A stretch of DNA of 34,371 nt from a virus (Duplodnaviria > Caudoviricetes), in IMG/VR virus record IMGVR_UViG_3300022670_000465, positions 1 through 34,371 of that record; one strand, given 5' to 3'. The notes under the pieces are model-generated. The model was not told the origin of the DNA and made no database searches. It worked only from the letters and a program-made list of their open reading frames with translations. A program made the position numbers and the translations under genes. Shown here piece after piece: positions 2,381 to 20,659 of this stretch (its first letter is position 1; each line of letters starts with the position of its first letter).

Positions 2381-2715
2381 TGGCCGATCGAAGGGCAGAT
2401 CGTAGGGCGAATGCAGGCAGGCCTGATAAGCCGAAGCCAGTTGTTGCTCACGGTGCGCCGCTATCAACACCGAAGCCGAGCACACGGCCGCGCCCCAAAG
2501 TGGGTCCAGCCGATGCTGCAACCAGGCGCCGCGAGATTGAACGTCGCGTCCAGGAAGGCAAAGACGCCAGCGAGAAAGCACGCGATAAACCGGTCACGAA
2601 AGCAGCGTCACCCAAGCCACCGCCGAGGACTATCGGCAAGCCTGGTCGGTCCACGTACGATGTACTACGAGACCGAGGCAAGGACACGGATGTAGCCGTG
2701 GAGAGGGAGCAGTAG
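2380..2715 (+). CDS. Hypothetical basic, Pro-rich protein
   Basis: TAGTG-coupled at both ends. Confidence 0.6.
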   Translation: MADRRADRRANAGRPDKPKPVVAHGAPLSTPKPSTRPRPKVGPADAATRRREIERRVQEGKDASEKARDKPVTKAASPKPPPRTIGKPGRSTYDVLRDRGKDTDVAVEREQ

Positions 2716-2954
2716 TGCCCTCTTCGCGGTCAGCCAAAGAGATCTGCCGCGAGGATCCGCATGGCATCTCCTGCAAGGTAGCAACGAAGCGCGAGGCGCG
2801 ACGTAAGCGCCGCGAGGAGGAGTACGGCGAAGCGCCGGCACCCAAGCCACCGCCAAAGAAGCCAGAGAAAAAGAAGCCAACGAAGCCAGCTACCCAGCGC
2901 CGCAAGTATCTCGAAGAGAAGATCCGCGAGGCCGAGGGCGGCAAGCCAAGCTGA
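2715..2954 (+). CDS. Hypothetical basic protein
   Basis: GGAG RBS, TAGTG coupling; K/P/E-rich. Confidence 0.6.
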   Translation: MPSSRSAKEICREDPHGISCKVATKREARRKRREEEYGEAPAPKPPPKKPEKKKPTKPATQRRKYLEEKIREAEGGKPS

Positions 2955-2997
2955 ACGAGACGCGAACGAAACACGAACGAGAAACGAACGGTCGTTC
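2953..2997. repeat. 11-bp-period direct repeat array (GAACGA(G/A)A..C) ending in the inverted repeat GAAC-GGTC-GTTC
   Basis: GAACGAGACGC / GAACGAAACAC / GAACGAGAAAC / GAACG followed by GTCGTTC. Confidence 0.8.
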
Positions 2998-3018
2998 AAG
3001 TCCAGACGAGGTCACGAC

Positions 3019-3402
3019 ATGAAGAGACGAGGATTCCTGAAGCGCCTAGCCGGCGTAGCCACTGCAGCTGTAATTAGCGAGAAGCTCATTCCTGATGACG
3101 GTGTGGCGCTGGGCAGCATGAAGCATCCGGTCCTGCTGCACGATGCCGCGCATCATGACCTGACCGAAGGCTTCGGCCTGGCGCAGGCAAAGGTCGAGGG
3201 CAGCACCATGCTCTACGACGAACTGGCTGCACCTGATCTCACCGAGGCATCGCTCGAGCAGGCGTGCATCGAAATCAAGAAGCGCGGCGGTATCATGACC
3301 AGGGCCGAGTTCTCTGAGCAGCTGGCCGATGGCCTGAATAAAGCATTCAAGGACGTGTACGCAGAGTACGAGCCTGGCGGCTGGGACGATGACAACGCAT
3401 GA
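3019..3402 (+). CDS. Twin-arginine-signal protein made of shuffled major-capsid-like segments
   Basis: GAGG RBS; MKRRGFLKRLAGVATAAV N-terminus; four blocks match MCP aa 138-148, 52-69, 164-177 and 3-27. Confidence 0.85.
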   Translation: MKRRGFLKRLAGVATAAVISEKLIPDDGVALGSMKHPVLLHDAAHHDLTEGFGLAQAKVEGSTMLYDELAAPDLTEASLEQACIEIKKRGGIMTRAEFSEQLADGLNKAFKDVYAEYEPGGWDDDNA

Positions 3403-3508
3403 CGAGCGACCGCCGGCACTAGCGGGGATCCCCCTGCGCACGTGGCTCATGTTGGTGATAGGCATGATCTTGGTCTGGGTAGCGCTGGGCTACCTGGTGC
3501 TTGGGTGA
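3389..3508 (+). CDS. 39-aa membrane peptide (not in ORF track)
   Basis: MTTHDERPPALAGIPLRTWLMLVIGMILVWVALGYLVLG; overlaps both neighbours (GTGA junction at 3505-3508). Confidence 0.55.
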   Translation: MTTHDERPPALAGIPLRTWLMLVIGMILVWVALGYLVLG

Positions 3509-3963
3509 ATCCGAAGCTGCTTGGTACCGTGACGACTCCAAAAGTGCTGATATACGTTGACGACGGGCACATCGACGTCATGCATACACGTGGCGTCGAG
3601 GTCGCTGTGATCGTTGAGGGGGAGGACGTAGAGATCCCTGACGACTGGCGCGGACTCATGGGCAGGCAGCATCATTCGCTCCCAATCACCGTAAATCGGG
3701 CAGAATTGCCTCAAAAGCGGGCACTACAGTGCGATTCTACGTCACTCGCGGCACCCAACACCCAAGTACATCACTCTACGGCACGTAATGGAGGGATGAA
3801 AGCGCCGTATTGCTATGACTGCGATGGCAACCATCCAGTCAGCATAGGCTGCGATGGCCTGCCGAAGACCTGCAGCTGCTGCGGTGCGAGCTACGGACAG
3901 TTGCACAGCACTGGCTGCGCTGACCAGAACCCGCTCGCCGAAGGCGGGAACATAGTGCAGTGA
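3505..3963 (+). CDS. Hypothetical protein with C-terminal Cys/His Zn-binding region
   Basis: GTG start coupled to the previous stop; CYDC...H...C and CSCC...H...C motifs. Confidence 0.55.
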   Translation: MNPKLLGTVTTPKVLIYVDDGHIDVMHTRGVEVAVIVEGEDVEIPDDWRGLMGRQHHSLPITVNRAELPQKRALQCDSTSLAAPNTQVHHSTARNGGMKAPYCYDCDGNHPVSIGCDGLPKTCSCCGASYGQLHSTGCADQNPLAEGGNIVQ

Positions 3964-4157
3964 ACTGGCTCAAGGTTGTCGTGGTCTATTACATCCTGGT
4001 CTACCTATTGATCGGCCGTATCGCCGTCGACGTTTTCGACCTGGTCACCTGGGGGAATATGATCGGCTTATTCTTTGGTTGTTGTATCGGCCATTACTTG
4101 GGTAAAATAGACAGCGGTGGGTTACAGGTAGGCAGCGGTAGGAGCCGGAAAGCGTGA
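3960..4157 (+). CDS. Small membrane protein
   Basis: GTGA overlap; two hydrophobic stretches. Confidence 0.55.
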   Translation: MNWLKVVVVYYILVYLLIGRIAVDVFDLVTWGNMIGLFFGCCIGHYLGKIDSGGLQVGSGRSRKA

Positions 4158-4176
4158 AGCGGACCACAGGAATACG

Positions 4177-4353
4177 ATGGAAGTACGAGGCAACGATCAG
4201 CGCAGGGCTGAGCTAAGCGAACTGAGCAAGCTGCTCGGAGGGTACGATATTGTCATCGACAACGAGATTCCGGAGGACGAGATCCACGTCATCGAAAAGC
4301 TCAACGGTGGTCTGCCGGCCAAGCAGGTCGTCTACCTCGACGAGTGTGCCTGA
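4177..4353 (+). CDS. 58-aa hypothetical protein (not in ORF track)
   Basis: AGGA RBS; MEVRGNDQRRAELSELSKLLGGYDIVIDNEIPEDEIHVIE...; GC3-rich codons. Confidence 0.55.
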   Translation: MEVRGNDQRRAELSELSKLLGGYDIVIDNEIPEDEIHVIEKLNGGLPAKQVVYLDECA

Positions 4354-4456
4354 GCGATACCAGTACGGGTGGCGGGATCCGCGGATCATGTCGCAGGAGG
4401 AACTCAAAAGCTGGTGGATGAGATCCATGCTCGATTGCGCCAGGCTCCAGCTGTGA
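4346..4456 (+). CDS. 36-aa peptide beginning with an MCP C-terminus-like motif
   Basis: MPERYQYGWRDPRIMSQEELKSWW...; overlaps both neighbours; same frame as ORF-track 4250..4456. Confidence 0.45.
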   Translation: MPERYQYGWRDPRIMSQEELKSWWMRSMLDCARLQL

Positions 4457-4644
4457 ACGCCATCAACGAATTGCCGTCGATCGACTACAGTGACCTGATC
4501 GAGAAGTGGGGCGGTCAGCGCGTCGAAAAGACGATGATCTTCATCGAGCTATCGGAGGATGCCCGCGGTCTGCTGGTCAGCATTCCCTGCACGCAAGAGC
4601 GAGTCGAAGCGGTCCTCGAGGCCGTGTATGGTGAGTACGAATAG
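4453..4644 (+). CDS. Hypothetical protein
   Basis: GTGA coupling; MNAINELPSIDYSDLIEKWGG... Confidence 0.55.
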   Translation: MNAINELPSIDYSDLIEKWGGQRVEKTMIFIELSEDARGLLVSIPCTQERVEAVLEAVYGEYE

Positions 4645-4648
4645 GCCG

Positions 4649-4936
4649 ATGCCAAGAATGGCACTGGGTCCGGTTGAGAACGCACGAGTTGAGATTGGAG
4701 GGGAAATCATGGCTGACGATTTAACATGGATCCGGGTGACCGATCGCTTACCGGCCTTCGGCGACAAGGTGATGGTGACCAGAGACACTGGTGGTCCCAG
4801 GCGGTTGGTCGAGCAGGCGTCACGCAAATGCATCGACTCCCGCGGCGAGGTCTGGGATGCCGCCGACCGGAATTCAGAACTGACTGACGTGATTGCCTGG
4901 GCACTGATTCCGAACGCGGCAGCAGCGAACCCATGA
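4649..4936 (+). CDS. DUF551-like protein (core from ATG 4709) with in-frame N-terminal LGPVENARVE extension
   Basis: WIRVTDRLP...VMV...W...V.AW..IP pattern; GGAGGG RBS before 4709. Confidence 0.65.
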   Translation: MPRMALGPVENARVEIGGEIMADDLTWIRVTDRLPAFGDKVMVTRDTGGPRRLVEQASRKCIDSRGEVWDAADRNSELTDVIAWALIPNAAAANP

Positions 4937-5142
4937 AGGCTTACATCGGCACGAAGATCGTCCAGGCAGAGCCTGAAGAAAAGCGCAGCGACCTGGCCAC
5001 CGGTCGTGTCATTGAGCAGGGCTACAAAGTCGTGTACGAGGATGGATACACATCCTGGTCGCCGAAGGATGTCTTCGAGCGCTGCTATCGCGAAGTGACA
5101 GAGGACGAGTACGAGCTTGTTTCCACCGGAGATGAATCATGA
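4933..5142 (+). CDS. YIGTK/GYxSWSP-family small phage protein
   Basis: MKAYIGTKIVQAEP...GYKVVYEDGYTSWSPKDVFERCY. Confidence 0.8.
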   Translation: MKAYIGTKIVQAEPEEKRSDLATGRVIEQGYKVVYEDGYTSWSPKDVFERCYREVTEDEYELVSTGDES

Positions 5143-5780
5143 TCAGTTACGGAGACCGCGATAAGCGGATGCTTGAACGATGGACAGACTGGCGCCGCCG
5201 GCTACGAGCGCCCAGCTGGGTGCCGATGCTGATGTATGCCGGCGTGATCATCATGGCGCTGCTGTTGTCCATGCAGGCCAAAGCTGGCGAGGCAACGCTG
5301 TCCTGGACGGCGCCGACGCAGAACACGGATGGATCGGCGCTGACTGACCTGGCCGGCTTCAAGATCTACGCCGGCCTCGTGCAAGGTGGACCGTACGGAG
5401 ACGTCAGCATCACGATCAACAATCCGACGACGACGACATTCGTGGTGCCAGGCCTCGCCGAGGGGACAACGTACTTTTTCGTAACGACGGCATTCAATAG
5501 CGCGAACCCGGTGCAGGAGAGCGACTTCAGCAACGAGGTCAGCAAACTCATTCCGCCGCTGGTCCCGGCGCCGCCGACCATGCTGACAGTGCAGAATCTG
5601 CTGGTCTGGGATGTCCTCAAGGAGGATGATCACTTCAAGTTCCTGGGTGTTGGCACGGTGCCAGGCGGCACTGCGTGTGATCCAACACAGACCGTGAACG
5701 GCAGGTATGTGGTGCCTAACGATCTGGTGGAATGGTTCGGCAACGTCCAGCCGCCAGTGGTGGTCGCCGACTGTTCATGA
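5139..5780 (+). CDS. Exported fibronectin type III-like protein
   Basis: Hydrophobic segment ending QAKA/GE; ATLSWTAP...GFKIY...GLAEGTTYFFVTTAFN...ESDFSNEV. Confidence 0.8.
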   Translation: MISYGDRDKRMLERWTDWRRRLRAPSWVPMLMYAGVIIMALLLSMQAKAGEATLSWTAPTQNTDGSALTDLAGFKIYAGLVQGGPYGDVSITINNPTTTTFVVPGLAEGTTYFFVTTAFNSANPVQESDFSNEVSKLIPPLVPAPPTMLTVQNLLVWDVLKEDDHFKFLGVGTVPGGTACDPTQTVNGRYVVPNDLVEWFGNVQPPVVVADCS

Positions 5781-7092: not shown

Positions 7093-7277
7093 ACATACCG
7101 GCCATCAGTGGTCACTGCACTCGAGGCCGAGCGCTCGAGTATGATAGCGTGATGCTGTTCACTGCCTATGGTCGCAGTTTTGCTGTGGTCGGATCTTATG
7201 ATGGCGCTGAGTGGGGGCTGTTCCTGGTGGTCAGCGATGAAGAATACGATGACTGGGCGAATCACTTTTGCAGATGA
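7089..7277 (+). CDS. Hypothetical protein
   Basis: GTGA and ATGA coupling at both ends. Confidence 0.5.
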   Translation: MNIPAISGHCTRGRALEYDSVMLFTAYGRSFAVVGSYDGAEWGLFLVVSDEEYDDWANHFCR

Positions 7278-7567
7278 AGAGACGCACATTCATTTTGGGC
7301 GCGGTCGCTGCTGCGGTCAGCGCCGCTCTGCCGGCACTGCCGAGCTACGAGTACAAGACGTATCGCATGGCCTTCAACTTCACACGCGAAACGGTCGGCA
7401 GGAATGAGTATTCTGAGATCGGTGATCGAATGGCTAAGGCGCTGGCCAGGTCGATGATGCAGACCAAGGAGCGAGTCATCGCGGACACGTTGAACCAGAT
7501 GTTTCCAGATTCGGGCGAGGGCGCACGGAGATCGGTCGGGGTCGAGGGCAGTCCTGATCGTATTTAA
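7274..7567 (+). CDS. Twin-arginine-signal protein carrying an MCP-homologous segment
   Basis: MKRRTFILGAVAAAVSAALP; aa 25-77 align without gaps to MCP aa 78-130. Confidence 0.85.
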   Translation: MKRRTFILGAVAAAVSAALPALPSYEYKTYRMAFNFTRETVGRNEYSEIGDRMAKALARSMMQTKERVIADTLNQMFPDSGEGARRSVGVEGSPDRI

Positions 7568-9174
7568 TGATGGCAATGAGCTTGTCGCATCAGCAGGCGA
7601 CCTTCACAGAGATGGAGGCCGAATGGCTGCGTCGAGATCTCAGGCGCTATGTGCCGGCGGTCTGGCCGCTGGTCGAATCCAGGGAGTTCAAAAACAACTG
7701 GCACATTGATGCCATCTGCGACCACCTGGCGTACGTCACGCTGGGAGACATCCGCAACCTGATCATCAACGTACCGCCGCGGCAAACGAAGTCGCTGACG
7801 GTCTCGGTCATCTGGCCTACCTGGTGGTGGGCCGAGGAACCCGAGATCCAGTTCATGTACGCCAGCTACTCGCATGACCTGGCGCTGCGTGATGCGGTCA
7901 AGGCCAGGGACATCATCCAGTCGGGCTGGTACCAGGAACGCTACGGCGGCAAGTTCTACCTGGATCCCGGGCAGAATCAGAAGGCCCGCTACGTCAACGA
8001 CAAGCACGGCTATCGGATCTCGACGTCCTGCCTCGGCAAGACCACGGGCGAAGGCGGCGACGTGCTGTGCATCGATGACCCGCACAACATGGCAGACGTG
8101 CACTCGGATCCGAAGCGCCACTCCACCCTCAGCTGGTACGACAACAGCTGGCGGTCACGTCTTAATGACCCAACCACAGGCCAGAAGGTCATCATCTGTC
8201 AGCGGTCTCACGACATGGACCTGGTCGGGCATATCCTCGACGGCGAAGCCGGCCGCTGGGTAGTGCTGATGCTGCCGAATGAGTACGACACGAAGCGCCA
8301 CTGCCGGACGTTCATCAATCCGAAGGGCCGCGATCTTGACTACAAGGAAATGCTCGAGAAGAAGGTCGAGCCGCTGTACGAGGACCAGCGCACGAAACCT
8401 CGAGACCTGCTCAATCCGCAGCGCTTTGGTGACGAGGAGACCAAGACCGAGAAGGCCGGCATGGGCACGGTCGACTACGAGGCCCAGTACAACCAGGACC
8501 CGGAGGCCGGCGGCGGTCTGATCCTGAAGCGCAAGTGGTGGCAGAACTGGGCGTACCCGCCGAACCACCCGAAGCAGGGCGAGCAGATGCCATACCCTGA
8601 GTGGGAGCAGATCATTTCGGTCTACGACACTGCGTTCAAGAAAGGCCAGGAGAACGATTACTCAGCGCGCACCAGCTGGGGACTGTTCTGGCATTCGATC
8701 ACCGGCCGCAAGGAAGACAACTGCCTCAACGCGATGCTGCTCGAGCGCATGAATGAGCGGATGGAGTTCGGCGAGCTTCGCGAGGCAGCGATCCGGCACG
8801 AGAAGGGCTGGGATCCGGACCACACGCTGATCGAAGACAAGGCCTCCGGCATCAGCCTGATCCAGGAGTTCGAGGCCGGCGGCATCCCGGTGTGGAAAGT
8901 GAAGGCGGGACCTGAGGACCTGGCGTATCGAGCGCACATGGTCTCGGGGATCCTGCGTGCCGGCAGGATCTGGTACGTCTCGAGGGACTGGGCGTTCGAC
9001 GTCATCAGCCAGTGCGCCAAGTTCCCGCTGGTCGAGCATGACGACCTGGTCGCCACCTGCGTGATCGCCTGGGCGTTCATGCGGCGGATGGGCGACATGG
9101 AGCTACCGGACGACGAGAAGGCCAACGAACTTGCGCTCTGGACCAGGCCGAAGCCCAAGTCGCCATATGGCTAA
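7567..9174 (+). CDS. terL: Terminase large subunit
   Basis: Walker A-like NVPPRQTKS, Walker B LCIDDPH, QYNQDP, nuclease motifs YDTA..DYSA, IEDKASG and HDDLV. Confidence 0.97.
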   Translation: MMAMSLSHQQATFTEMEAEWLRRDLRRYVPAVWPLVESREFKNNWHIDAICDHLAYVTLGDIRNLIINVPPRQTKSLTVSVIWPTWWWAEEPEIQFMYASYSHDLALRDAVKARDIIQSGWYQERYGGKFYLDPGQNQKARYVNDKHGYRISTSCLGKTTGEGGDVLCIDDPHNMADVHSDPKRHSTLSWYDNSWRSRLNDPTTGQKVIICQRSHDMDLVGHILDGEAGRWVVLMLPNEYDTKRHCRTFINPKGRDLDYKEMLEKKVEPLYEDQRTKPRDLLNPQRFGDEETKTEKAGMGTVDYEAQYNQDPEAGGGLILKRKWWQNWAYPPNHPKQGEQMPYPEWEQIISVYDTAFKKGQENDYSARTSWGLFWHSITGRKEDNCLNAMLLERMNERMEFGELREAAIRHEKGWDPDHTLIEDKASGISLIQEFEAGGIPVWKVKAGPEDLAYRAHMVSGILRAGRIWYVSRDWAFDVISQCAKFPLVEHDDLVATCVIAWAFMRRMGDMELPDDEKANELALWTRPKPKSPYG

Positions 9175-12492: not shown

Positions 12493-12714
12493 ATGAGCAC
12501 GATCTACTACTGTGACGCTGCAAGCTGCAACAAGAAAGAACCTGGCCGACCATCTAGCTCTGGCTGGGCACCGCCAGACGGCTGGTCGACTTTCGCGCAA
12601 GGAATGGACGTCGTCGACGCCTGCAGCCCGGAGCATCAGGAGGCGATCGAAGCCGCCAATACGCCTGAAGAGGAACCCGAAGAGGAAGCCGAGGCTGAGG
12701 CCGAAGAGAGTTGA
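12493..12714 (+). CDS. Small Cys-containing protein with acidic tail
   Basis: AAGGAG RBS; CDAASC...PPDGW...DACSPEH. Confidence 0.7.
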   Translation: MSTIYYCDAASCNKKEPGRPSSSGWAPPDGWSTFAQGMDVVDACSPEHQEAIEAANTPEEEPEEEAEAEAEES

Positions 12715-13178
12715 GTCGGCTGGTCCTGTGGCCTGACCCGCGACTGCGTGAGATCTGCGCGGAAGTGCGGGAGGACACGGACTGCAGCGAGATCATCGAT
12801 GCCCTGATCGAGGTGAAGGAAGAGCATCACGGCCTGGGCATCGCGGCTCCGCAGATCGGCGCGATGGTCCGCATCATCGTCGTCGAAGATTTGATCGTCA
12901 TCAATCCGCGCATCGTGAAGCGCTCCCAGCAAAGGCGTTGGGTCTGGGAGGGCTGTCTGTCATTCCCCGAGACCTTGCCGAAGTACGCCCAGGACATGGG
13001 TATGGTGCGCGATGGCGATCGAGTGCGCGTGCGCCGGCACAAGCGGATCCAGGTCGAAGGCTTTGACCGCAACTGGAAACCGTTCACAGCGAGAGGACGC
13101 GATTGGAAAGGCGCGTGCCTTGAACATGAGATCGAACATCTCGACGGCATCACGTTGAACGATCACCGTAGACGATAG
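12711..13178 (+). CDS. def: Peptide deformylase
   Basis: All three PDF motifs: GLGIAAPQIG, EGCLS, HEIEHLDG. Confidence 0.96.
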   Translation: MSRLVLWPDPRLREICAEVREDTDCSEIIDALIEVKEEHHGLGIAAPQIGAMVRIIVVEDLIVINPRIVKRSQQRRWVWEGCLSFPETLPKYAQDMGMVRDGDRVRVRRHKRIQVEGFDRNWKPFTARGRDWKGACLEHEIEHLDGITLNDHRRR

Positions 13179-13180
13179 AT

Positions 13181-13210
13181 TTGCTGCAGTACATTGCGTG
13201 CGTGTACACT
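13181..13210 (+). promoter_or_regulatory. Possible sigma70-type promoter for the head operon
   Basis: TTGCTG-18 nt-TACACT upstream of the portal RBS. Confidence 0.3.
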
Positions 13211-13239
13211 TCGCGAAACCGGTGCGGAGGGCGACCGCG

Positions 13240-15789
13240 ATGGCGCGTGAAGAACAGGTTGGCTCTTTTGTCGAAGAGCTACCAGCGACAACCCCTAAAG
13301 TTCAACGGGCGGGCAATGGCGCGCTAGTCACCCAGCAGGGTGAAGACACCATTGTCGACCTGAATCCTGCAACCGACACCGAACCATTCGAAGCACCCGA
13401 GATGGATCCGGACTGGCATGCGAATCTCGCTGACCAGTTGACGCCCACTAATCGCCACGCTATCGCCGACCAGCTGCTCGAGTACGTGGAACTCGACAAG
13501 CAGGTCCGCGAGCACCATTTCCGCCGCATCAAAGATGGCCTTGAGCTTCTCGGTCTCAAAGACCTTCCGGAATCTGACACTCCGTTCGACGGCGCTGCTT
13601 CCGTTACGGACCCGCTAATTGGCGAGGCAGTCGTGCAGTTCCAGTCGCGAGCGATCGAGGAGCTTTTTCCTGCCGATGGCCCAGTGAAGTCCTCTATCCT
13701 GGGCGAGGTCACCCAGGAGAAGGAAGAGCAAGCCGAGCGCCTCGAGGACTACATGAATTACCAGCTGACGGTCGAGGACCAGGGTTACTTCTGGGACGTC
13801 GATCAGATGCTGTTCTACCTGCCGATGTCAGGCTCGGCGTTCAAGAAAGTTTACATCGATCCGGTCACCGAGATGACCACCAGCCGCTACGTGACGGCCG
13901 AAGATTTCATCGTGCCGTACTACTGCAAGGACCTGAAGTCAGCCACCAGGTACGCGCACGAGTACACGATGGAGGGCAACAACATCAAGCGCGCCCAGGT
14001 CGACGGGCAGTTCCTGGCAGATGCATTCCTGATTCCCAGCCCGCAGATCATGTCGGACAAGAATGTCAGCTTCACCGACGAGAATATGGAGGACGTCGCC
14101 GACGATCGCGTGCCGATCGTTCACGAGGACGACGAGGTCTACAAGCTCTACGAGTACCACATCGATTACGAGATGCCGTTCAAGGATCCGGAGATCGGTG
14201 AGAACGATACCGACATCGCATGCCCGTACATCGTCACCATCGAGGAGGAGAGCCGTGAGGTCCTATCAGTCCGGCGCAACTGGAAGAAAGGCGACGAGAA
14301 ATACCGCAAGCGACTCTGGTTCTCGCACTACAAGTTCCTGCCAGGCCTCGGCTTCTACGGATTCGGCTACCTTCATATCATCGGTGCACTGGCGAAAGCT
14401 GCTTCAGGATCTCTGCGAGCGATCCTCGATACTGCGGCCCTGTCTAATCTCCCAGGTGGATTCAAGAGCAAGAAAGCCAAGATAAGCGGCGAGCACCGCT
14501 TCACGCTGGGTGAGTTCCGCGACGTCGATATGTCTCCTGAGGACCTGCAGCAAGCATTCCTGCCGCTGCCAGTCAACGAGCCAAGCCCAGCCCTGGCCAC
14601 TACCTACGAGAACCTGATCCAGCGCGGCAAGGAATTCATGGGCACGATAGAAGTGCTCACTGGCGGCGCCGACAACCGCGGACCCGTCGGCACTACGCTG
14701 GCGCTGATCGAGCAAGCCGGCAAGCCACAGTCAGCCATCCACAAGCGCCTGCACAAGGCGATGCGCGAAGAGTTGACGATGATGGCGCAGCTGAACTACG
14801 AGCTAATGGATCGGGACGAGTACCCGTACGAGCTTGGCGGCGAGAGCAAGGTAGTACTGAAGCAGGACTTCGACGGTCGCGTCGACGTCATCCCGGTATC
14901 GGATCCAAACATTTTCTCGAGCGTGCAGCGCATCGCCCAGTCGCAAGGCGTGCTCGAGCTTGTCGAGTCGGCGCCGGAGATGTACGGCGAGAAGGGACGC
15001 AAAGAAGCTCACCGCCGCATGCTGGCAGCGCTCAAGGTGCCGGAGGTTGACAAGCTACTGCCGGAGGAAACAACGCCGAAGAACCTGGATCCGGTCAGCG
15101 AGAATCAGATGATGGCCACCGGCCTGCCGGTGCAGGTGCGGACAACGCAGGACGACGAGTCGCACATCGCGGTGCACCAGGAGTTCGCCGAGATGATGGC
15201 GATCGGCGATCCGGATCTGTGGAAGCAGGTCGAGCCGGTGTTCATGTCACACAAGATGGAGCACCTGGTCAGCCAGTACCGCAAGGATGTCGAGCAGATG
15301 CTGGGCATGGAACTGCCGCCGTTCGATCTGTACGACGAGGCCGAGACCGAGGACTTGCCACCCGAGATCGAGACCATGCTTAGCCAGGCCATCGCTGCCA
15401 AGCAGCGCCAGGCGAAGCAGGAGAAGGAAGCTGCCGAGGGCGGCCCACCGCTCTCACCGGAAGAGGCCGAGGTCAAAGCGATCGAGGATGCCAAGGATGC
15501 CGAGACTATCGGCAAGCTCGAGCGCATGAAGGCCGAGCACCAGGAGAAGCAACGCCAGGCTGCCGAAGAGCATGCGCAGCAGATGACGCAAAAGCAGGAG
15601 GCATTCACTGCAGAGGAGACACGCAAAGATACCGAAAACGAAGCCGACATCGAGCGCGAGAAGAAGCTCGGTGCGGCTAAACGAGCAGCCCTGGTGAGCG
15701 CGCCGGCAAGCAGGTCACGGACACCGGAACGCGAGACCAACAGGCCGCCACCGAAGAAGAAGGCCGATGGCGGCGCCGACGCCCGCTGA
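13240..15789 (+). CDS. Portal protein
   Basis: GGAGG RBS; HANLA...GLELLG...PFDGA.SV..P.I.EA..QFQ..A..EL.PA.GPVK, GSAFKKVY.D, YKFLPGLGFYG.G, PVGTTLALIE, DFDGRVDVIPVSDPN; position after terL. Confidence 0.92.
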   Translation: MAREEQVGSFVEELPATTPKVQRAGNGALVTQQGEDTIVDLNPATDTEPFEAPEMDPDWHANLADQLTPTNRHAIADQLLEYVELDKQVREHHFRRIKDGLELLGLKDLPESDTPFDGAASVTDPLIGEAVVQFQSRAIEELFPADGPVKSSILGEVTQEKEEQAERLEDYMNYQLTVEDQGYFWDVDQMLFYLPMSGSAFKKVYIDPVTEMTTSRYVTAEDFIVPYYCKDLKSATRYAHEYTMEGNNIKRAQVDGQFLADAFLIPSPQIMSDKNVSFTDENMEDVADDRVPIVHEDDEVYKLYEYHIDYEMPFKDPEIGENDTDIACPYIVTIEEESREVLSVRRNWKKGDEKYRKRLWFSHYKFLPGLGFYGFGYLHIIGALAKAASGSLRAILDTAALSNLPGGFKSKKAKISGEHRFTLGEFRDVDMSPEDLQQAFLPLPVNEPSPALATTYENLIQRGKEFMGTIEVLTGGADNRGPVGTTLALIEQAGKPQSAIHKRLHKAMREELTMMAQLNYELMDRDEYPYELGGESKVVLKQDFDGRVDVIPVSDPNIFSSVQRIAQSQGVLELVESAPEMYGEKGRKEAHRRMLAALKVPEVDKLLPEETTPKNLDPVSENQMMATGLPVQVRTTQDDESHIAVHQEFAEMMAIGDPDLWKQVEPVFMSHKMEHLVSQYRKDVEQMLGMELPPFDLYDEAETEDLPPEIETMLSQAIAAKQRQAKQEKEAAEGGPPLSPEEAEVKAIEDAKDAETIGKLERMKAEHQEKQRQAAEEHAQQMTQKQEAFTAEETRKDTENEADIEREKKLGAAKRAALVSAPASRSRTPERETNRPPPKKKADGGADAR

Positions 15790-17235: not shown

Positions 17236-17295
17236 TCATCGTGACAACGTGCACGTGACTCTGTAAGTTTCATGCACAGGCCGCTGGAGGGCAGC

Positions 17296-18345
17296 ATGCC
17301 TAAGAAAGATTTCGACTATCAGTTCGAAGATATCCGCCGTGAAGACACGCCGGTATCTGCCGCTGGGTTTGGCGACATTGTCGAAGAGCTAGAGGACCCA
17401 AGCGAGGCTTTTGTTGAGGTCGACCTCGAAGAGGAAGATCCCGGTAAAGCTGTGAGCGCCGCTACGTCAGTCGCCGATGAGGATACATCCGCGAACGATA
17501 AAGACGGTGGCTCGAAAGACCAACGACGCGCAGCGCTGGACGCCAGGCGCAAAACAGATCAGTTAGAGCAGGACCTCGATGAGCGAAGCACCGAGGTTGC
17601 CGGCGAGCTAAGCACCCTGAGACAGGAGGTTGCGGAACTCAAGGCAGTCAAGGAAATCGATGCCATCGAGGAAGAGTTCTCCGGCGAGGAAGCCGAGCTT
17701 ACCGTGAAGATGGAAGCGGCGATGGAGGAAGGCGATACCAAAGCCCAGTCCGCGCTGAACTCGCAACTGATCAAGCTCAACAGCGACAAGCAGGCCAAGC
17801 AGGCTGCTGCCGAGGCCTCTGTGACTATCATCGAGGACCTGGACGCTGGTGGCGCTGCAGATCAGCCCGCTAACAAGCGCGCTGTGCAATTCATTCGGGA
17901 CAACCAGGAATGGTGGTCGGATCCCGATCATGAAGATGCTGTCGTGTACGTCAGGAAACTTGACAAGAAGCTCGTTGCAATGGGCTTCGATCCAGACAGC
18001 GATGCCTACTGGACTCGCTTCAACCACAACTTTGACAAGAAGTACGACGGCCTCCGCGAGATGGACCCGGACGATATCGATGTCGATCTCGATCTTGGTC
18101 AGGACACGGGCAAGGGCCGCCGCAAGTCACATGTTGCTCCACCCGGCGGTGCCGGCGGGACGCGGCGTGGGACCAAGCGCGGCGACAACGGTCAAGGTAG
18201 TGGTTCGAAAGTTGTGCTGACCGCTCGGCATAAGCAGAACATGGTGCAATTCGGGCTAGACCCGCAAAACGCCGAACACTGCGCGAATTATGCCAAAGAG
18301 GTAGCAGCTACGCAGAAACGAGATGCGGAAAGGAGGGTGTCATGA
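17296..18345 (+). CDS. Putative capsid scaffolding protein
   Basis: GGAGG RBS; acidic coiled-coil; N.EWW...L...GFDPDSD.YW; located between portal and capsid genes. Confidence 0.7.
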   Translation: MPKKDFDYQFEDIRREDTPVSAAGFGDIVEELEDPSEAFVEVDLEEEDPGKAVSAATSVADEDTSANDKDGGSKDQRRAALDARRKTDQLEQDLDERSTEVAGELSTLRQEVAELKAVKEIDAIEEEFSGEEAELTVKMEAAMEEGDTKAQSALNSQLIKLNSDKQAKQAAAEASVTIIEDLDAGGAADQPANKRAVQFIRDNQEWWSDPDHEDAVVYVRKLDKKLVAMGFDPDSDAYWTRFNHNFDKKYDGLREMDPDDIDVDLDLGQDTGKGRRKSHVAPPGGAGGTRRGTKRGDNGQGSGSKVVLTARHKQNMVQFGLDPQNAEHCANYAKEVAATQKRDAERRVS

Positions 18346-19744: not shown

Positions 19745-20659
19745 ATGGCTATGAATCGCGCTGACTTTAGAAAGCAGCTACAGGAAGGGCTGAACACGGT
19801 GTTCGGCATGGAGTACGCACGCTACCCAGAAGAGTGGAAATATCTTTTCGCAATCGAACGGTCGGTCAAGGCCTTCGAGGAAGATGTCCTGCTCGCTGGC
19901 TTCGACGCAGCACCGGTCAAGCCTGAAGGGGAGGGTGTCGCGTACGACGAGGGGGCAGAGAGTTACGTTGCCCGATATACGCATGAGACGATCGCATTGG
20001 CTTTCTCAATAACCGAGGAAGCTGAAGAGGACGGCTTATACGGCTCTATCGGTAGCAAGTACGCTCGAGCGCTCGCTCGCTCACTACAACAGACCAAAGA
20101 AGTTAAGGGCGCTGACGTCCTGAATAACGGCTTCGACGCTACCTTCCCAGGTGGCGACGGCGTGCCGCTGTTCAGTGCATCACATCCGCAGTTCGGCGGT
20201 GGCGTCCAGGCTAACACCCTGGCAGTCGCAGCTGATCTGTCCGAGGCTTCATTGGAGCAGGCAGCCATTGACATCTCTGAGTTTGACGATGACCGGGGAA
20301 TCCCGATCGCCTGTCAGATCAAGAAGATGGCAGTGCCGACGCAACTGCAGTTCGTGGCAACACGCATCCTGCAGTCGCCGTATCGCACGGGAACGGGCGA
20401 TAACGACATCAATGCAATCAACACGTTGGGAACTGTTGCTGATGGATTCTGTGTAAATCACCGATTTACCGATCCAGATGCTTGGTTTCTTTTAACGGAT
20501 TGCCCTGATGGGCTGAAGCATTTTGTGCGCAAGAACGTGCAGCGAGGAATCGAGGGCGACTTCGAGACCGGCAACCTGCGCTACAAGGCACGAGAGCGCT
20601 ACAGCTACGGCTTTTCTGACTGGCGTGGAGCTTACGGTTCACCAGGAGGTGGCACCTAA
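19745..20659 (+). CDS. Major capsid protein (HK97-like fold inferred)
   Basis: MAMNRADFRKQLQEGLNTVFGMEY, RYTHETIALAFSITEEA.ED, ALARS..QTK, GDFETGN.RYKARERYS.G..D.R; size and position. Confidence 0.93.
   Translation: MAMNRADFRKQLQEGLNTVFGMEYARYPEEWKYLFAIERSVKAFEEDVLLAGFDAAPVKPEGEGVAYDEGAESYVARYTHETIALAFSITEEAEEDGLYGSIGSKYARALARSLQQTKEVKGADVLNNGFDATFPGGDGVPLFSASHPQFGGGVQANTLAVAADLSEASLEQAAIDISEFDDDRGIPIACQIKKMAVPTQLQFVATRILQSPYRTGTGDNDINAINTLGTVADGFCVNHRFTDPDAWFLLTDCPDGLKHFVRKNVQRGIEGDFETGNLRYKARERYSYGFSDWRGAYGSPGGGT

Follow-up and report, generated by a model that had tools for sequence, protein, structure and literature searches.

The window analyzed here, a 34-kb virus record (34,371 nucleotides) that encodes a terminase large subunit (TerL), a portal and a major capsid protein (MCP), carries two small genes, ORF-A and ORF-B, in which a twin-arginine leader is followed by pieces of the MCP. 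Leader-plus-capsid-fragment genes of this kind are real, selected, and modular, and they are apparently undescribed in print. A sequence-only reading had described ORF-A as a scrambled four-block mosaic of the MCP; it overlooked the leader, the sister gene at 7274-7567, and the modular family behind the mosaic. The explanation that we favor, tentatively and at less than even probability, is that both proteins are baits that bind host capsid sensors and move them to the membrane or periplasm.

Anatomy of the two genes

The MCP gene (19745..20659, +) encodes a 304-residue protein that matches PF25209 and phrog_371 and is 54-58% identical to the MCPs of Pelagibacter phage HTVC023P and Roseobacter phage CRP-901. 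On sequence grounds, the blocks of ORF-A and ORF-B derive from the MCP family of this HTVC023P/CRP-901 kind, and the two genes copy separate, non-overlapping parts of the first 180 MCP residues. Most rows of the sequencing runs holding window DNA are labeled sediment or marine sediment.

ORF-A (3019..3402, +) encodes 127 residues, with four MCP blocks in the order e-b-f-a behind the leader. The leader (aa1-25; 3019..3093, +) has an RRGFLK motif and then only 11 uncharged residues, and is followed by block e (aa27-37; 3097..3129, +; MCP 138-148), a His-rich module (aa39-47; 3133..3159, +), block b (aa48-68; 3160..3222, +; MCP 49-69), block f (aa73-86; 3235..3276, +; MCP 164-177), and block a (aa93-117; 3295..3369, +; MCP 3-27). 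The hand alignments on which the mosaic had been proposed were exact, with 7/11 identities for e, 9/18 for b (aa51-68 against MCP 52-69), 11/14 for f, and 13/25 for a. The four best ungapped segments between ORF-A and the MCP score 64, 57, 45, and 38 (BLOSUM62), and thus exceed rank by rank the maxima for segments ranked first to fourth in 300 composition-preserving shuffles (46, 34, 33, and 31). When the best segment of each shuffle is considered, 0/300 reach 57 or 64, 1/300 reaches 45, and 4% reach 38. Block e alone is weak.

The proposed non-collinearity also holds: ORF-A, which covers about 70 of the 304 MCP residues out of order, is neither a truncated duplicate nor the product of one permutation. 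It is not an assembly chimera, since an independent 4330-nt contig from a run without a possible-source flag spans 2500-5422 with 1 difference and so crosses the whole ORF. Synonymous divergence from the MCP gene is as had been claimed, with different codons at 6 of the 11 identical residues of block f and at 18 of 40 over all four blocks (DNA identity of the blocks, 125/204). Among the 20 largest direct-repeat families and the 25 longest inverted pairs, none joins ORF-A to the MCP gene. No Pfam, PHROG, or NCBIfam family covers ORF-A, and PF25209 itself does not match it; at 127 residues with reordered blocks, it is not the full-length collinear chain (~300 aa) of an HK97-type capsid protein. 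Homology of its segments to PF25209 MCPs holds, with a profile-profile E of 1.1e-8. For the His-rich module, which might bind metal, a search of 1380 long ORFs from the loci examined yielded no source. Two other candidate relationships were rejected. Derivation of the leader from the MCP N-terminus gives 5/10 identities and a score of 22, below the shuffle mean of 29, and similarity of ORF-A to the portal (z 4-5) lies near the shuffle maxima and was taken as chance.

ORF-B (7274..7567, +; 97 aa) joins a Tat-type leader (aa1-22) to blocks c and d (aa25-77), which correspond to MCP 78-130 with 24/53 identities and a score of 107 against a shuffle maximum of 44. Its profile matches are PF25209 (E=0.0015) and PF10518 (E=0.012, below the cut-off). 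The ORF-B stop codon overlaps the start of the TerL gene (7567..9174, +; phrog_38, E=1.5e-65), and a terminator-like 10-pair hairpin with a T-rich tail (7533..7570, +) lies inside the conserved ORF-B end, just 5' of TerL. This hairpin likely explains why the ORF-B tail is conserved at the DNA level (dS 0.105 vs. 0.46 across the whole gene), and it could limit TerL expression. The middle of ORF-B is swapped in co-occurring alleles, with joints at 7334/7345 to 7439. A promoter scan was at chance level (3 found vs. 2.9 expected). Four RNA-labeled runs hold contigs of relatives, which may stem from DNA in those samples and as contigs cannot show transcription.

ORF-A was modeled as three isolated helices without a compact fold (pLDDT 57, pTM 0.22, 48 sequences), and it is predicted to be unable to form the fold of its source family, the PF25209 Phage_capsid_4/phrog_371 MCPs. 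The earlier description of the protein as a string of epitopes fits this model and the variable block order in the family. Folded without an alignment, the MCP reached a pLDDT of 36; no solved relative was found by sequence, and the best by profile was a Mu gpT-domain protein (E=0.23). By our assignment of HK97-fold labels, a is presumably the N-arm helix, b the E-loop, c the following strand, d the spine helix, e the loop after the spine helix, and f the first A-domain helix. Since the blocks are thus spread over the monomer, their free order would fit separate binding words better than a rebuilt surface.

A modular family with twin-arginine leaders

Searches with ORF-A and ORF-B gave 47 relatives among 62 candidates and 55 among 85, respectively, while 32 proteins came from an index-free search over 1.84 billion representatives, of which 5 were repeats and 3 were dropped. 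Long repeat proteins (P0105, P0112, and P0127) were excluded before all counts. The resulting family comprises 126 short proteins with a median of 109 aa, including the clusters of the window's own two (P0001 and P0048). All are 62-136 aa long, including the 24 from the search without a length limit. Block parsing of these 126, together with the two window proteins, used a profile built from 82 MCPs and, as threshold, the 99th percentile of 300 shuffles. The same six blocks recur: e (MCP 138-148) is the commonest, with 75 occurrences in the 128 proteins, followed by b (51-68) with 72, d (99/103-130) with 59, a (1-27) with 41, f (162/164-177) with 40, and c (78-86 or longer) with 20. Block g (216-223) was found twice and h (238-251) once, and at this threshold blocks from beyond MCP 190 occur in only 3/128 short proteins. 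Edges are sharp, the ends falling at 148 for e (51 cases) and at 68 for b (48 cases). The 128 proteins show 29 block strings, some of which arise only because a weak block dropped below the threshold, and block order is non-collinear in 80 of 95 multi-block proteins. The ORF-A mosaic is therefore best regarded, from this comparison of homologs that the sequence-only reading had proposed, as one allele of a modular family.

Modules also cross between genes. The His-rich module is mobile between A and B genes, and in L128 a B-type leader and tail surround this module and block b. In 15 proteins b and f are joined via a shared Asp, a pattern expected from short-homology recombination, and RecT, which relatives of the window encode, is the likely agent of the reshuffling. 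Cargo is not limited to the MCP: P0046 and P0106 end in a copy of the C-terminus of the putative scaffold (aa309-354; window 18196-18333), a match that lies above all 200 shuffles (z 9.0 and 6.9, among 1980 pairs tested) and reaches E=8e-8 against a relative's copy. The putative scaffold gene (17272..18345, +) has no family match and is so labeled from its position and make-up. In P0036, P0038, P0039, P0041, and P0042, a different 45-residue C-terminal tail stands in place of block a, and a search found no source for it.

A profile search for longer proteins pulled 68 from 7997 scored candidates, 67 of which are PF25209 capsid proteins. The other, P0189, is a leader-bearing chain of 317 aa in which nine segments follow one another as h, a, i, e, f, b, c, d, d. 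Six of them exceed the 95th shuffle percentile, four outscore all 100 shuffles, and the number of blocks strung together is put at seven to nine. Among the segments of P0189 and P0198 (Logan, 317-319 aa), at most nine per chain, are C-terminal MCP ones that the short members lack. P0189 thus breaks two rules that we had considered, a strict length ceiling for the family and a complete avoidance of C-terminal MCP blocks. The idea that the blocks are the most conserved MCP parts was also rejected, since block coverage along the MCP is uncorrelated with conservation (Spearman -0.03, p=0.55) and almost nothing is taken from the well-conserved C-terminal third.

Genes of this type also occur in phages whose MCP is only 39% (G008) or 44% (G009) identical to that of the window. 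In the ESM Atlas the first matches were viral clusters at 0.90 and 0.87, and nothing was found for P0189. Cultured phage records gave no match to ORF-A and 13 to P0047, all at capsid genes, and a host scan of genome contigs gave 18 loci, all over the MCP-like part only (query residues 22-94) and none over the leader.

The motif RRxF[LI] reads RRGFLK in ORF-A and RRTFIL in ORF-B, and RRx[FL][LIM] is found near the start in 121/126 short relatives over 51 different leader texts; of the five without it, four start 3' of the expected leader and one has a variant motif. The uncharged h-region has 21 residues in ORF-B and 11 in ORF-A. At least 13 uncharged residues, about the threshold that we take to be the TATFIND criterion, are present in 53/53 B-type, 4/47 A-type, and 15/24 distant members. 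TIGR01409 matches at E<=0.01 in 16/56 B-type members and 1/48 A-type members, and in neither window protein. The ORF-A leader, with its short h-region, would thus be marginal as a Tat signal. Like known Tat signal peptides (PF10518/TIGR01409), these leaders combine an N-terminal RRxF[LI] with a following uncharged stretch and small acidic cargo (median net charge -5.5). They differ in being phage-encoded, in carrying capsid fragments rather than a folded cofactor enzyme, and, for the A type, in an h-region of 11 residues, and export is a prediction. In hitchhiker export, a partner is carried out through Tat together with a leader-bearing protein. Works with hitchhiker export in their titles are cited in PMC6708511, PMC13673990, and PMC9251779. 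PMC6708511 indicates that Tat tolerates unstructured cargo of 100-120 aa and, with PMC13673990, that exposed hydrophobic stretches stall it.

Similar leaders are also found on ORFs without MCP blocks (L007:1417-1800, L124:9798-10001, and L127:11825-12163). The one in L124 lies directly 5' of a mosaic gene and has a weak portal-motif resemblance (E=0.015), and a nozzle-like origin considered for the one in L127 gave no match. Tandem pairs of leader-bearing genes occur at L125:3970-4534, L126:880-1486, and L139:9552-10285.

Allegiance, selection, and position

The sequence-only reading had suggested capture from a related phage, and proposed asking block by block whether each is closer to another phage's MCP. 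This is so for some blocks only. When 124 MCPs are ranked against ORF-A, the window's own MCP comes first for block a (0/68 better), 5th for f, 18th for e, and 108th for b, and against ORF-B it comes 30th for c and 14th for d. Capture thus fits block b, which is nearer to other clades' MCPs, but not block a. Across the family, in counts that are mostly of proteins whose own MCP is unknown, the nearest MCP belongs to the window's clade for a (40/41), e (70/74), and f (35/42) but rarely for b (4/75) and d (5/58). In genomes where the mosaic gene and its phage's own MCP are both known, the own MCP ranks 7 (G009) and 3 (G011) for block b, and for block d it ranks 100 (G008), 107 (G010), 38 (G011), and 79 (G013) of 125. 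The ranks are thus mixed, and the cargo draws on the wider MCP family and not only on the phage's own gene.

Both genes are, as judged from substitution rates, under purifying selection, which agrees with the protein-level selection that had been proposed for ORF-A. In six non-independent pairs from four genomes, dN/dS is 0.43 for ORF-A (leader 0.18, e 0.13, His-rich module 0.19, and about 0.5 for b, f, and a) and 0.42 for ORF-B (leader 0.09 and d 0.37); it is below 1 in all 22 pairs computed, the highest being 0.95. The leader is therefore among the most constrained parts of ORF-A. Between the window and G002, a collinear 68.6-kb relative that is 99% complete, identity is 98.7% for the MCP, 78.7% for A, and 45.7% for B; among small neighbor genes, ORF-A is within range and ORF-B near the bottom. 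The cargo turns over while the capsid stays constant.

Their position is stable. Both genes lie between the terminase genes, from the TerS side to TerL, and the A and B slots are kept in six genomes or fragments within their reach, with only a tail match at the B slot of G005. G002 has TerS just 5' of the mosaic-gene region and also encodes RecT, YqaJ, SSB, RusA, and a methylase. In 14 further loci, the gene is upstream of TerL on the same strand in 11, TerL is on the opposite strand in 1, and 2 show no TerL.

What the genes might do

Leader and capsid words are both conserved, and the reading that needs both is a bait whose catch is moved. In the proposed mechanism, the Tat machinery would read the leader, the capsid words would bind putative host sensors, that is, defense proteins that recognize capsid motifs, and these would be held at the membrane or exported via Tat before the real MCP triggers them. 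The late transcript would yield the baits ahead of the MCP, and new block orders would arise by RecT-type recombination over short homologies. Several findings support this reading: 1) the cargo consists of free-standing words, with six sharp-edged blocks in varied order and no compact fold, 2) the blocks sample the wider MCP family, 3) the cargo changes while the capsid is constant, and 4) the twin-arginine motif is kept in 121/126 short relatives, whose 62-136 aa suit the length of unstructured cargo that Tat tolerates. The gene being upstream of TerL in 11 of the 14 loci, its product would be made alongside the phage's own MCP, which makes a shield likelier than a capsid poison.

Targets of the required kind exist. 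PMC13581612 describes hosts sensing MCP through short motifs (Lit and CapRel) or by wrapping the folded protein (Avs7, 8, and 10, with Avs7 mostly engaging the A-domain), and PMC12578639 names MCP as a trigger of Thoeris. ORF-A and ORF-B thus resemble a protein class that is a documented defense trigger. Lit and CapRel-SJ46 (short motifs), Thoeris ThsB, and Avs7/8/10 (whole fold) are the kind of target that a capsid bait might have; they are host-side proteins, and none is linked to the window phage. The nearest precedent in logic is DSAD1, an inhibitor of DSR2 which, as described in PMC10973363, mimics the phage tail tube and traps its sensor. By analogy, a phage mimic of a sensed structural protein would occupy the sensor. 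DSAD1 copies one tail-tube site for one sensor, whereas ORF-A and ORF-B hold several reshuffled literal copies of capsid segments plus an export leader.

Other observations count against sensor-catching baits. Linear pieces would be poor mimics of the folded MCP read by Avs7/8/10, and a motif presented alone might activate a sensor instead of silencing it. The T4 Gol peptide, for example, is a short capsid motif that activates its sensor. P0189, at 317 aa, is far above the limit for unstructured cargo, the ORF-A leader has a short h-region while Tat stalls on exposed hydrophobic stretches, and ORF-A, at 79% identity, is no outlier among neighboring small genes. A wider version, to which we give a lower probability and which we regard as doubtful, makes these genes a general counter-defense chassis: a Tat leader joined to recombined pieces of the most-sensed virion proteins (capsid, scaffold, and perhaps portal), forming multi-epitope baits that would catch immune sensors and ship them from the cytoplasm by hitchhiker export.

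Scaffold cargo points also in another direction. The scaffold C-terminus binds coat protein in other phages, and the copy of the putative scaffold's C-terminus in two members favors MCP capture. The corresponding explanation, which we consider unlikely though the strongest of the rivals, is that the blocks occupy the sites of neighboring subunits on the unassembled MCP of related phages that co-infect the cell. The leader would then pull the subunits caught in this way to the membrane or export them from the cytoplasm, and rival heads would fail. The N-arm, E-loop, and spine helix, which are presumably represented among the blocks, make subunit contacts in HK97-type shells, and b and d are nearer to other clades' MCPs, with the low own-MCP ranks for d in G008, G010, and G013 given above. 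However, a, e, and f are nearest to the window's own clade and the genes stand beside head genes, so that the phage's own capsid would be hit, and the 31 G002 proteins scanned include no integrase, so that nothing points to a lysogen that protects its host. Sid, CpmAB, TcaP, Ppi, and Tab are small accessory proteins of prophages or satellites that act on another element's assembly; they share the logic of subunit capture, and unlike the present proteins they are folded and are not known to consist of shuffled capsid pieces or to carry a Tat leader.

The remaining explanations dispense with one part of the design or place it elsewhere. That the leader is the working part, occupying TatBC or leader-binding chaperones or serving as membrane anchor, with capsid pieces as raw material for a soluble tail, would explain why leader dN/dS (0.09-0.18) is well below that of a, b, and f, and why similar leaders occur without MCP blocks. 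We find it distinctly unlikely, because six segments recur with identical edges, block e has a dN/dS of 0.13, and similar cargo is found in phages whose MCPs share only 39-44% identity; mere filler would hardly be so choosy. Improbable, too, is a role in assembling the phage's own heads, with the protein as a buffer or nucleator tethered to the membrane that would bind own MCP or scaffold and tune when, where, or at what size heads form. The position among head genes, the best match of block a to the own MCP, and the scaffold-like cargo would all suit it, but cargo changes wholesale between phages with 99% identical MCP, cultured phages with an MCP of the HTVC023P/CRP-901 kind show no such gene, and the G008 blocks do not follow their own MCP. 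Quite improbable is an exported signal or surface display. The pieces would then work in the periplasm or extracellularly, where their targets might be sensors in the envelope, proteases, or incoming virions, and no cytoplasmic partner would travel with them. B-type leaders look like full Tat signals (53/53) and the sizes fit export of unstructured cargo; free MCP, on the other hand, is cytoplasmic, and the literature examined holds no periplasmic MCP sensor. The block segments are presumably mostly buried in finished shells. Neutral recombination debris or assembly artifact is very improbable and already largely refuted, since the frame stays open in 126 relatives, each of the 22 pairs has a dN/dS under 1, the genes keep their position, and independent contigs support them, even though the phage clade encodes the RecT and YqaJ recombination proteins and three blocks have a dN/dS of only about 0.5.

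We found no description of leader-tagged capsid-fragment genes in the open full-text literature, which was covered mostly by title and abstract. Passages of a 2026 editorial (PMC13728456) and of an anti-defense database preprint (10.1101/2025.06.06.658234), in which "capsid" occurs 0 times, hold no such case. If the proteins are indeed baits for sensors, they would represent a new route to defeat bacterial immunity, sensor removal by a hijacked export pathway, and their favored blocks would point to capsid segments recognized by hosts, making sensing testable peptide by peptide. Under the wider chassis version, the recurring blocks would be a natural map of the capsid epitopes seen by bacterial immunity. 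If they instead trap capsid subunits of competitors, phages would be fighting one another by a previously unseen means. In both cases, they offer a clear natural case of genes built from reshuffled structural-protein pieces, with many intermediate block sets on record.

Several features of the neighborhood were noted in passing. G002 has a very large ORF with LPD38 and InPase polyvalent-protein domains (L019:10052-20000 and L020:1-3377), cut at the edge of the fetched sequence. In the window, a peptide deformylase gene (12711-13178) lies directly 5' of the portal gene (13198-15789). The window, G002, and G013 have 99% identical MCPs, yet their tail-side genes are only 32-60% identical. Finally, 5139-5780 encodes a fibronectin type III protein (PF00041, E=4e-5) whose N-terminal part includes a hydrophobic stretch; 9 of 14 loci have such a protein close to the mosaic gene.
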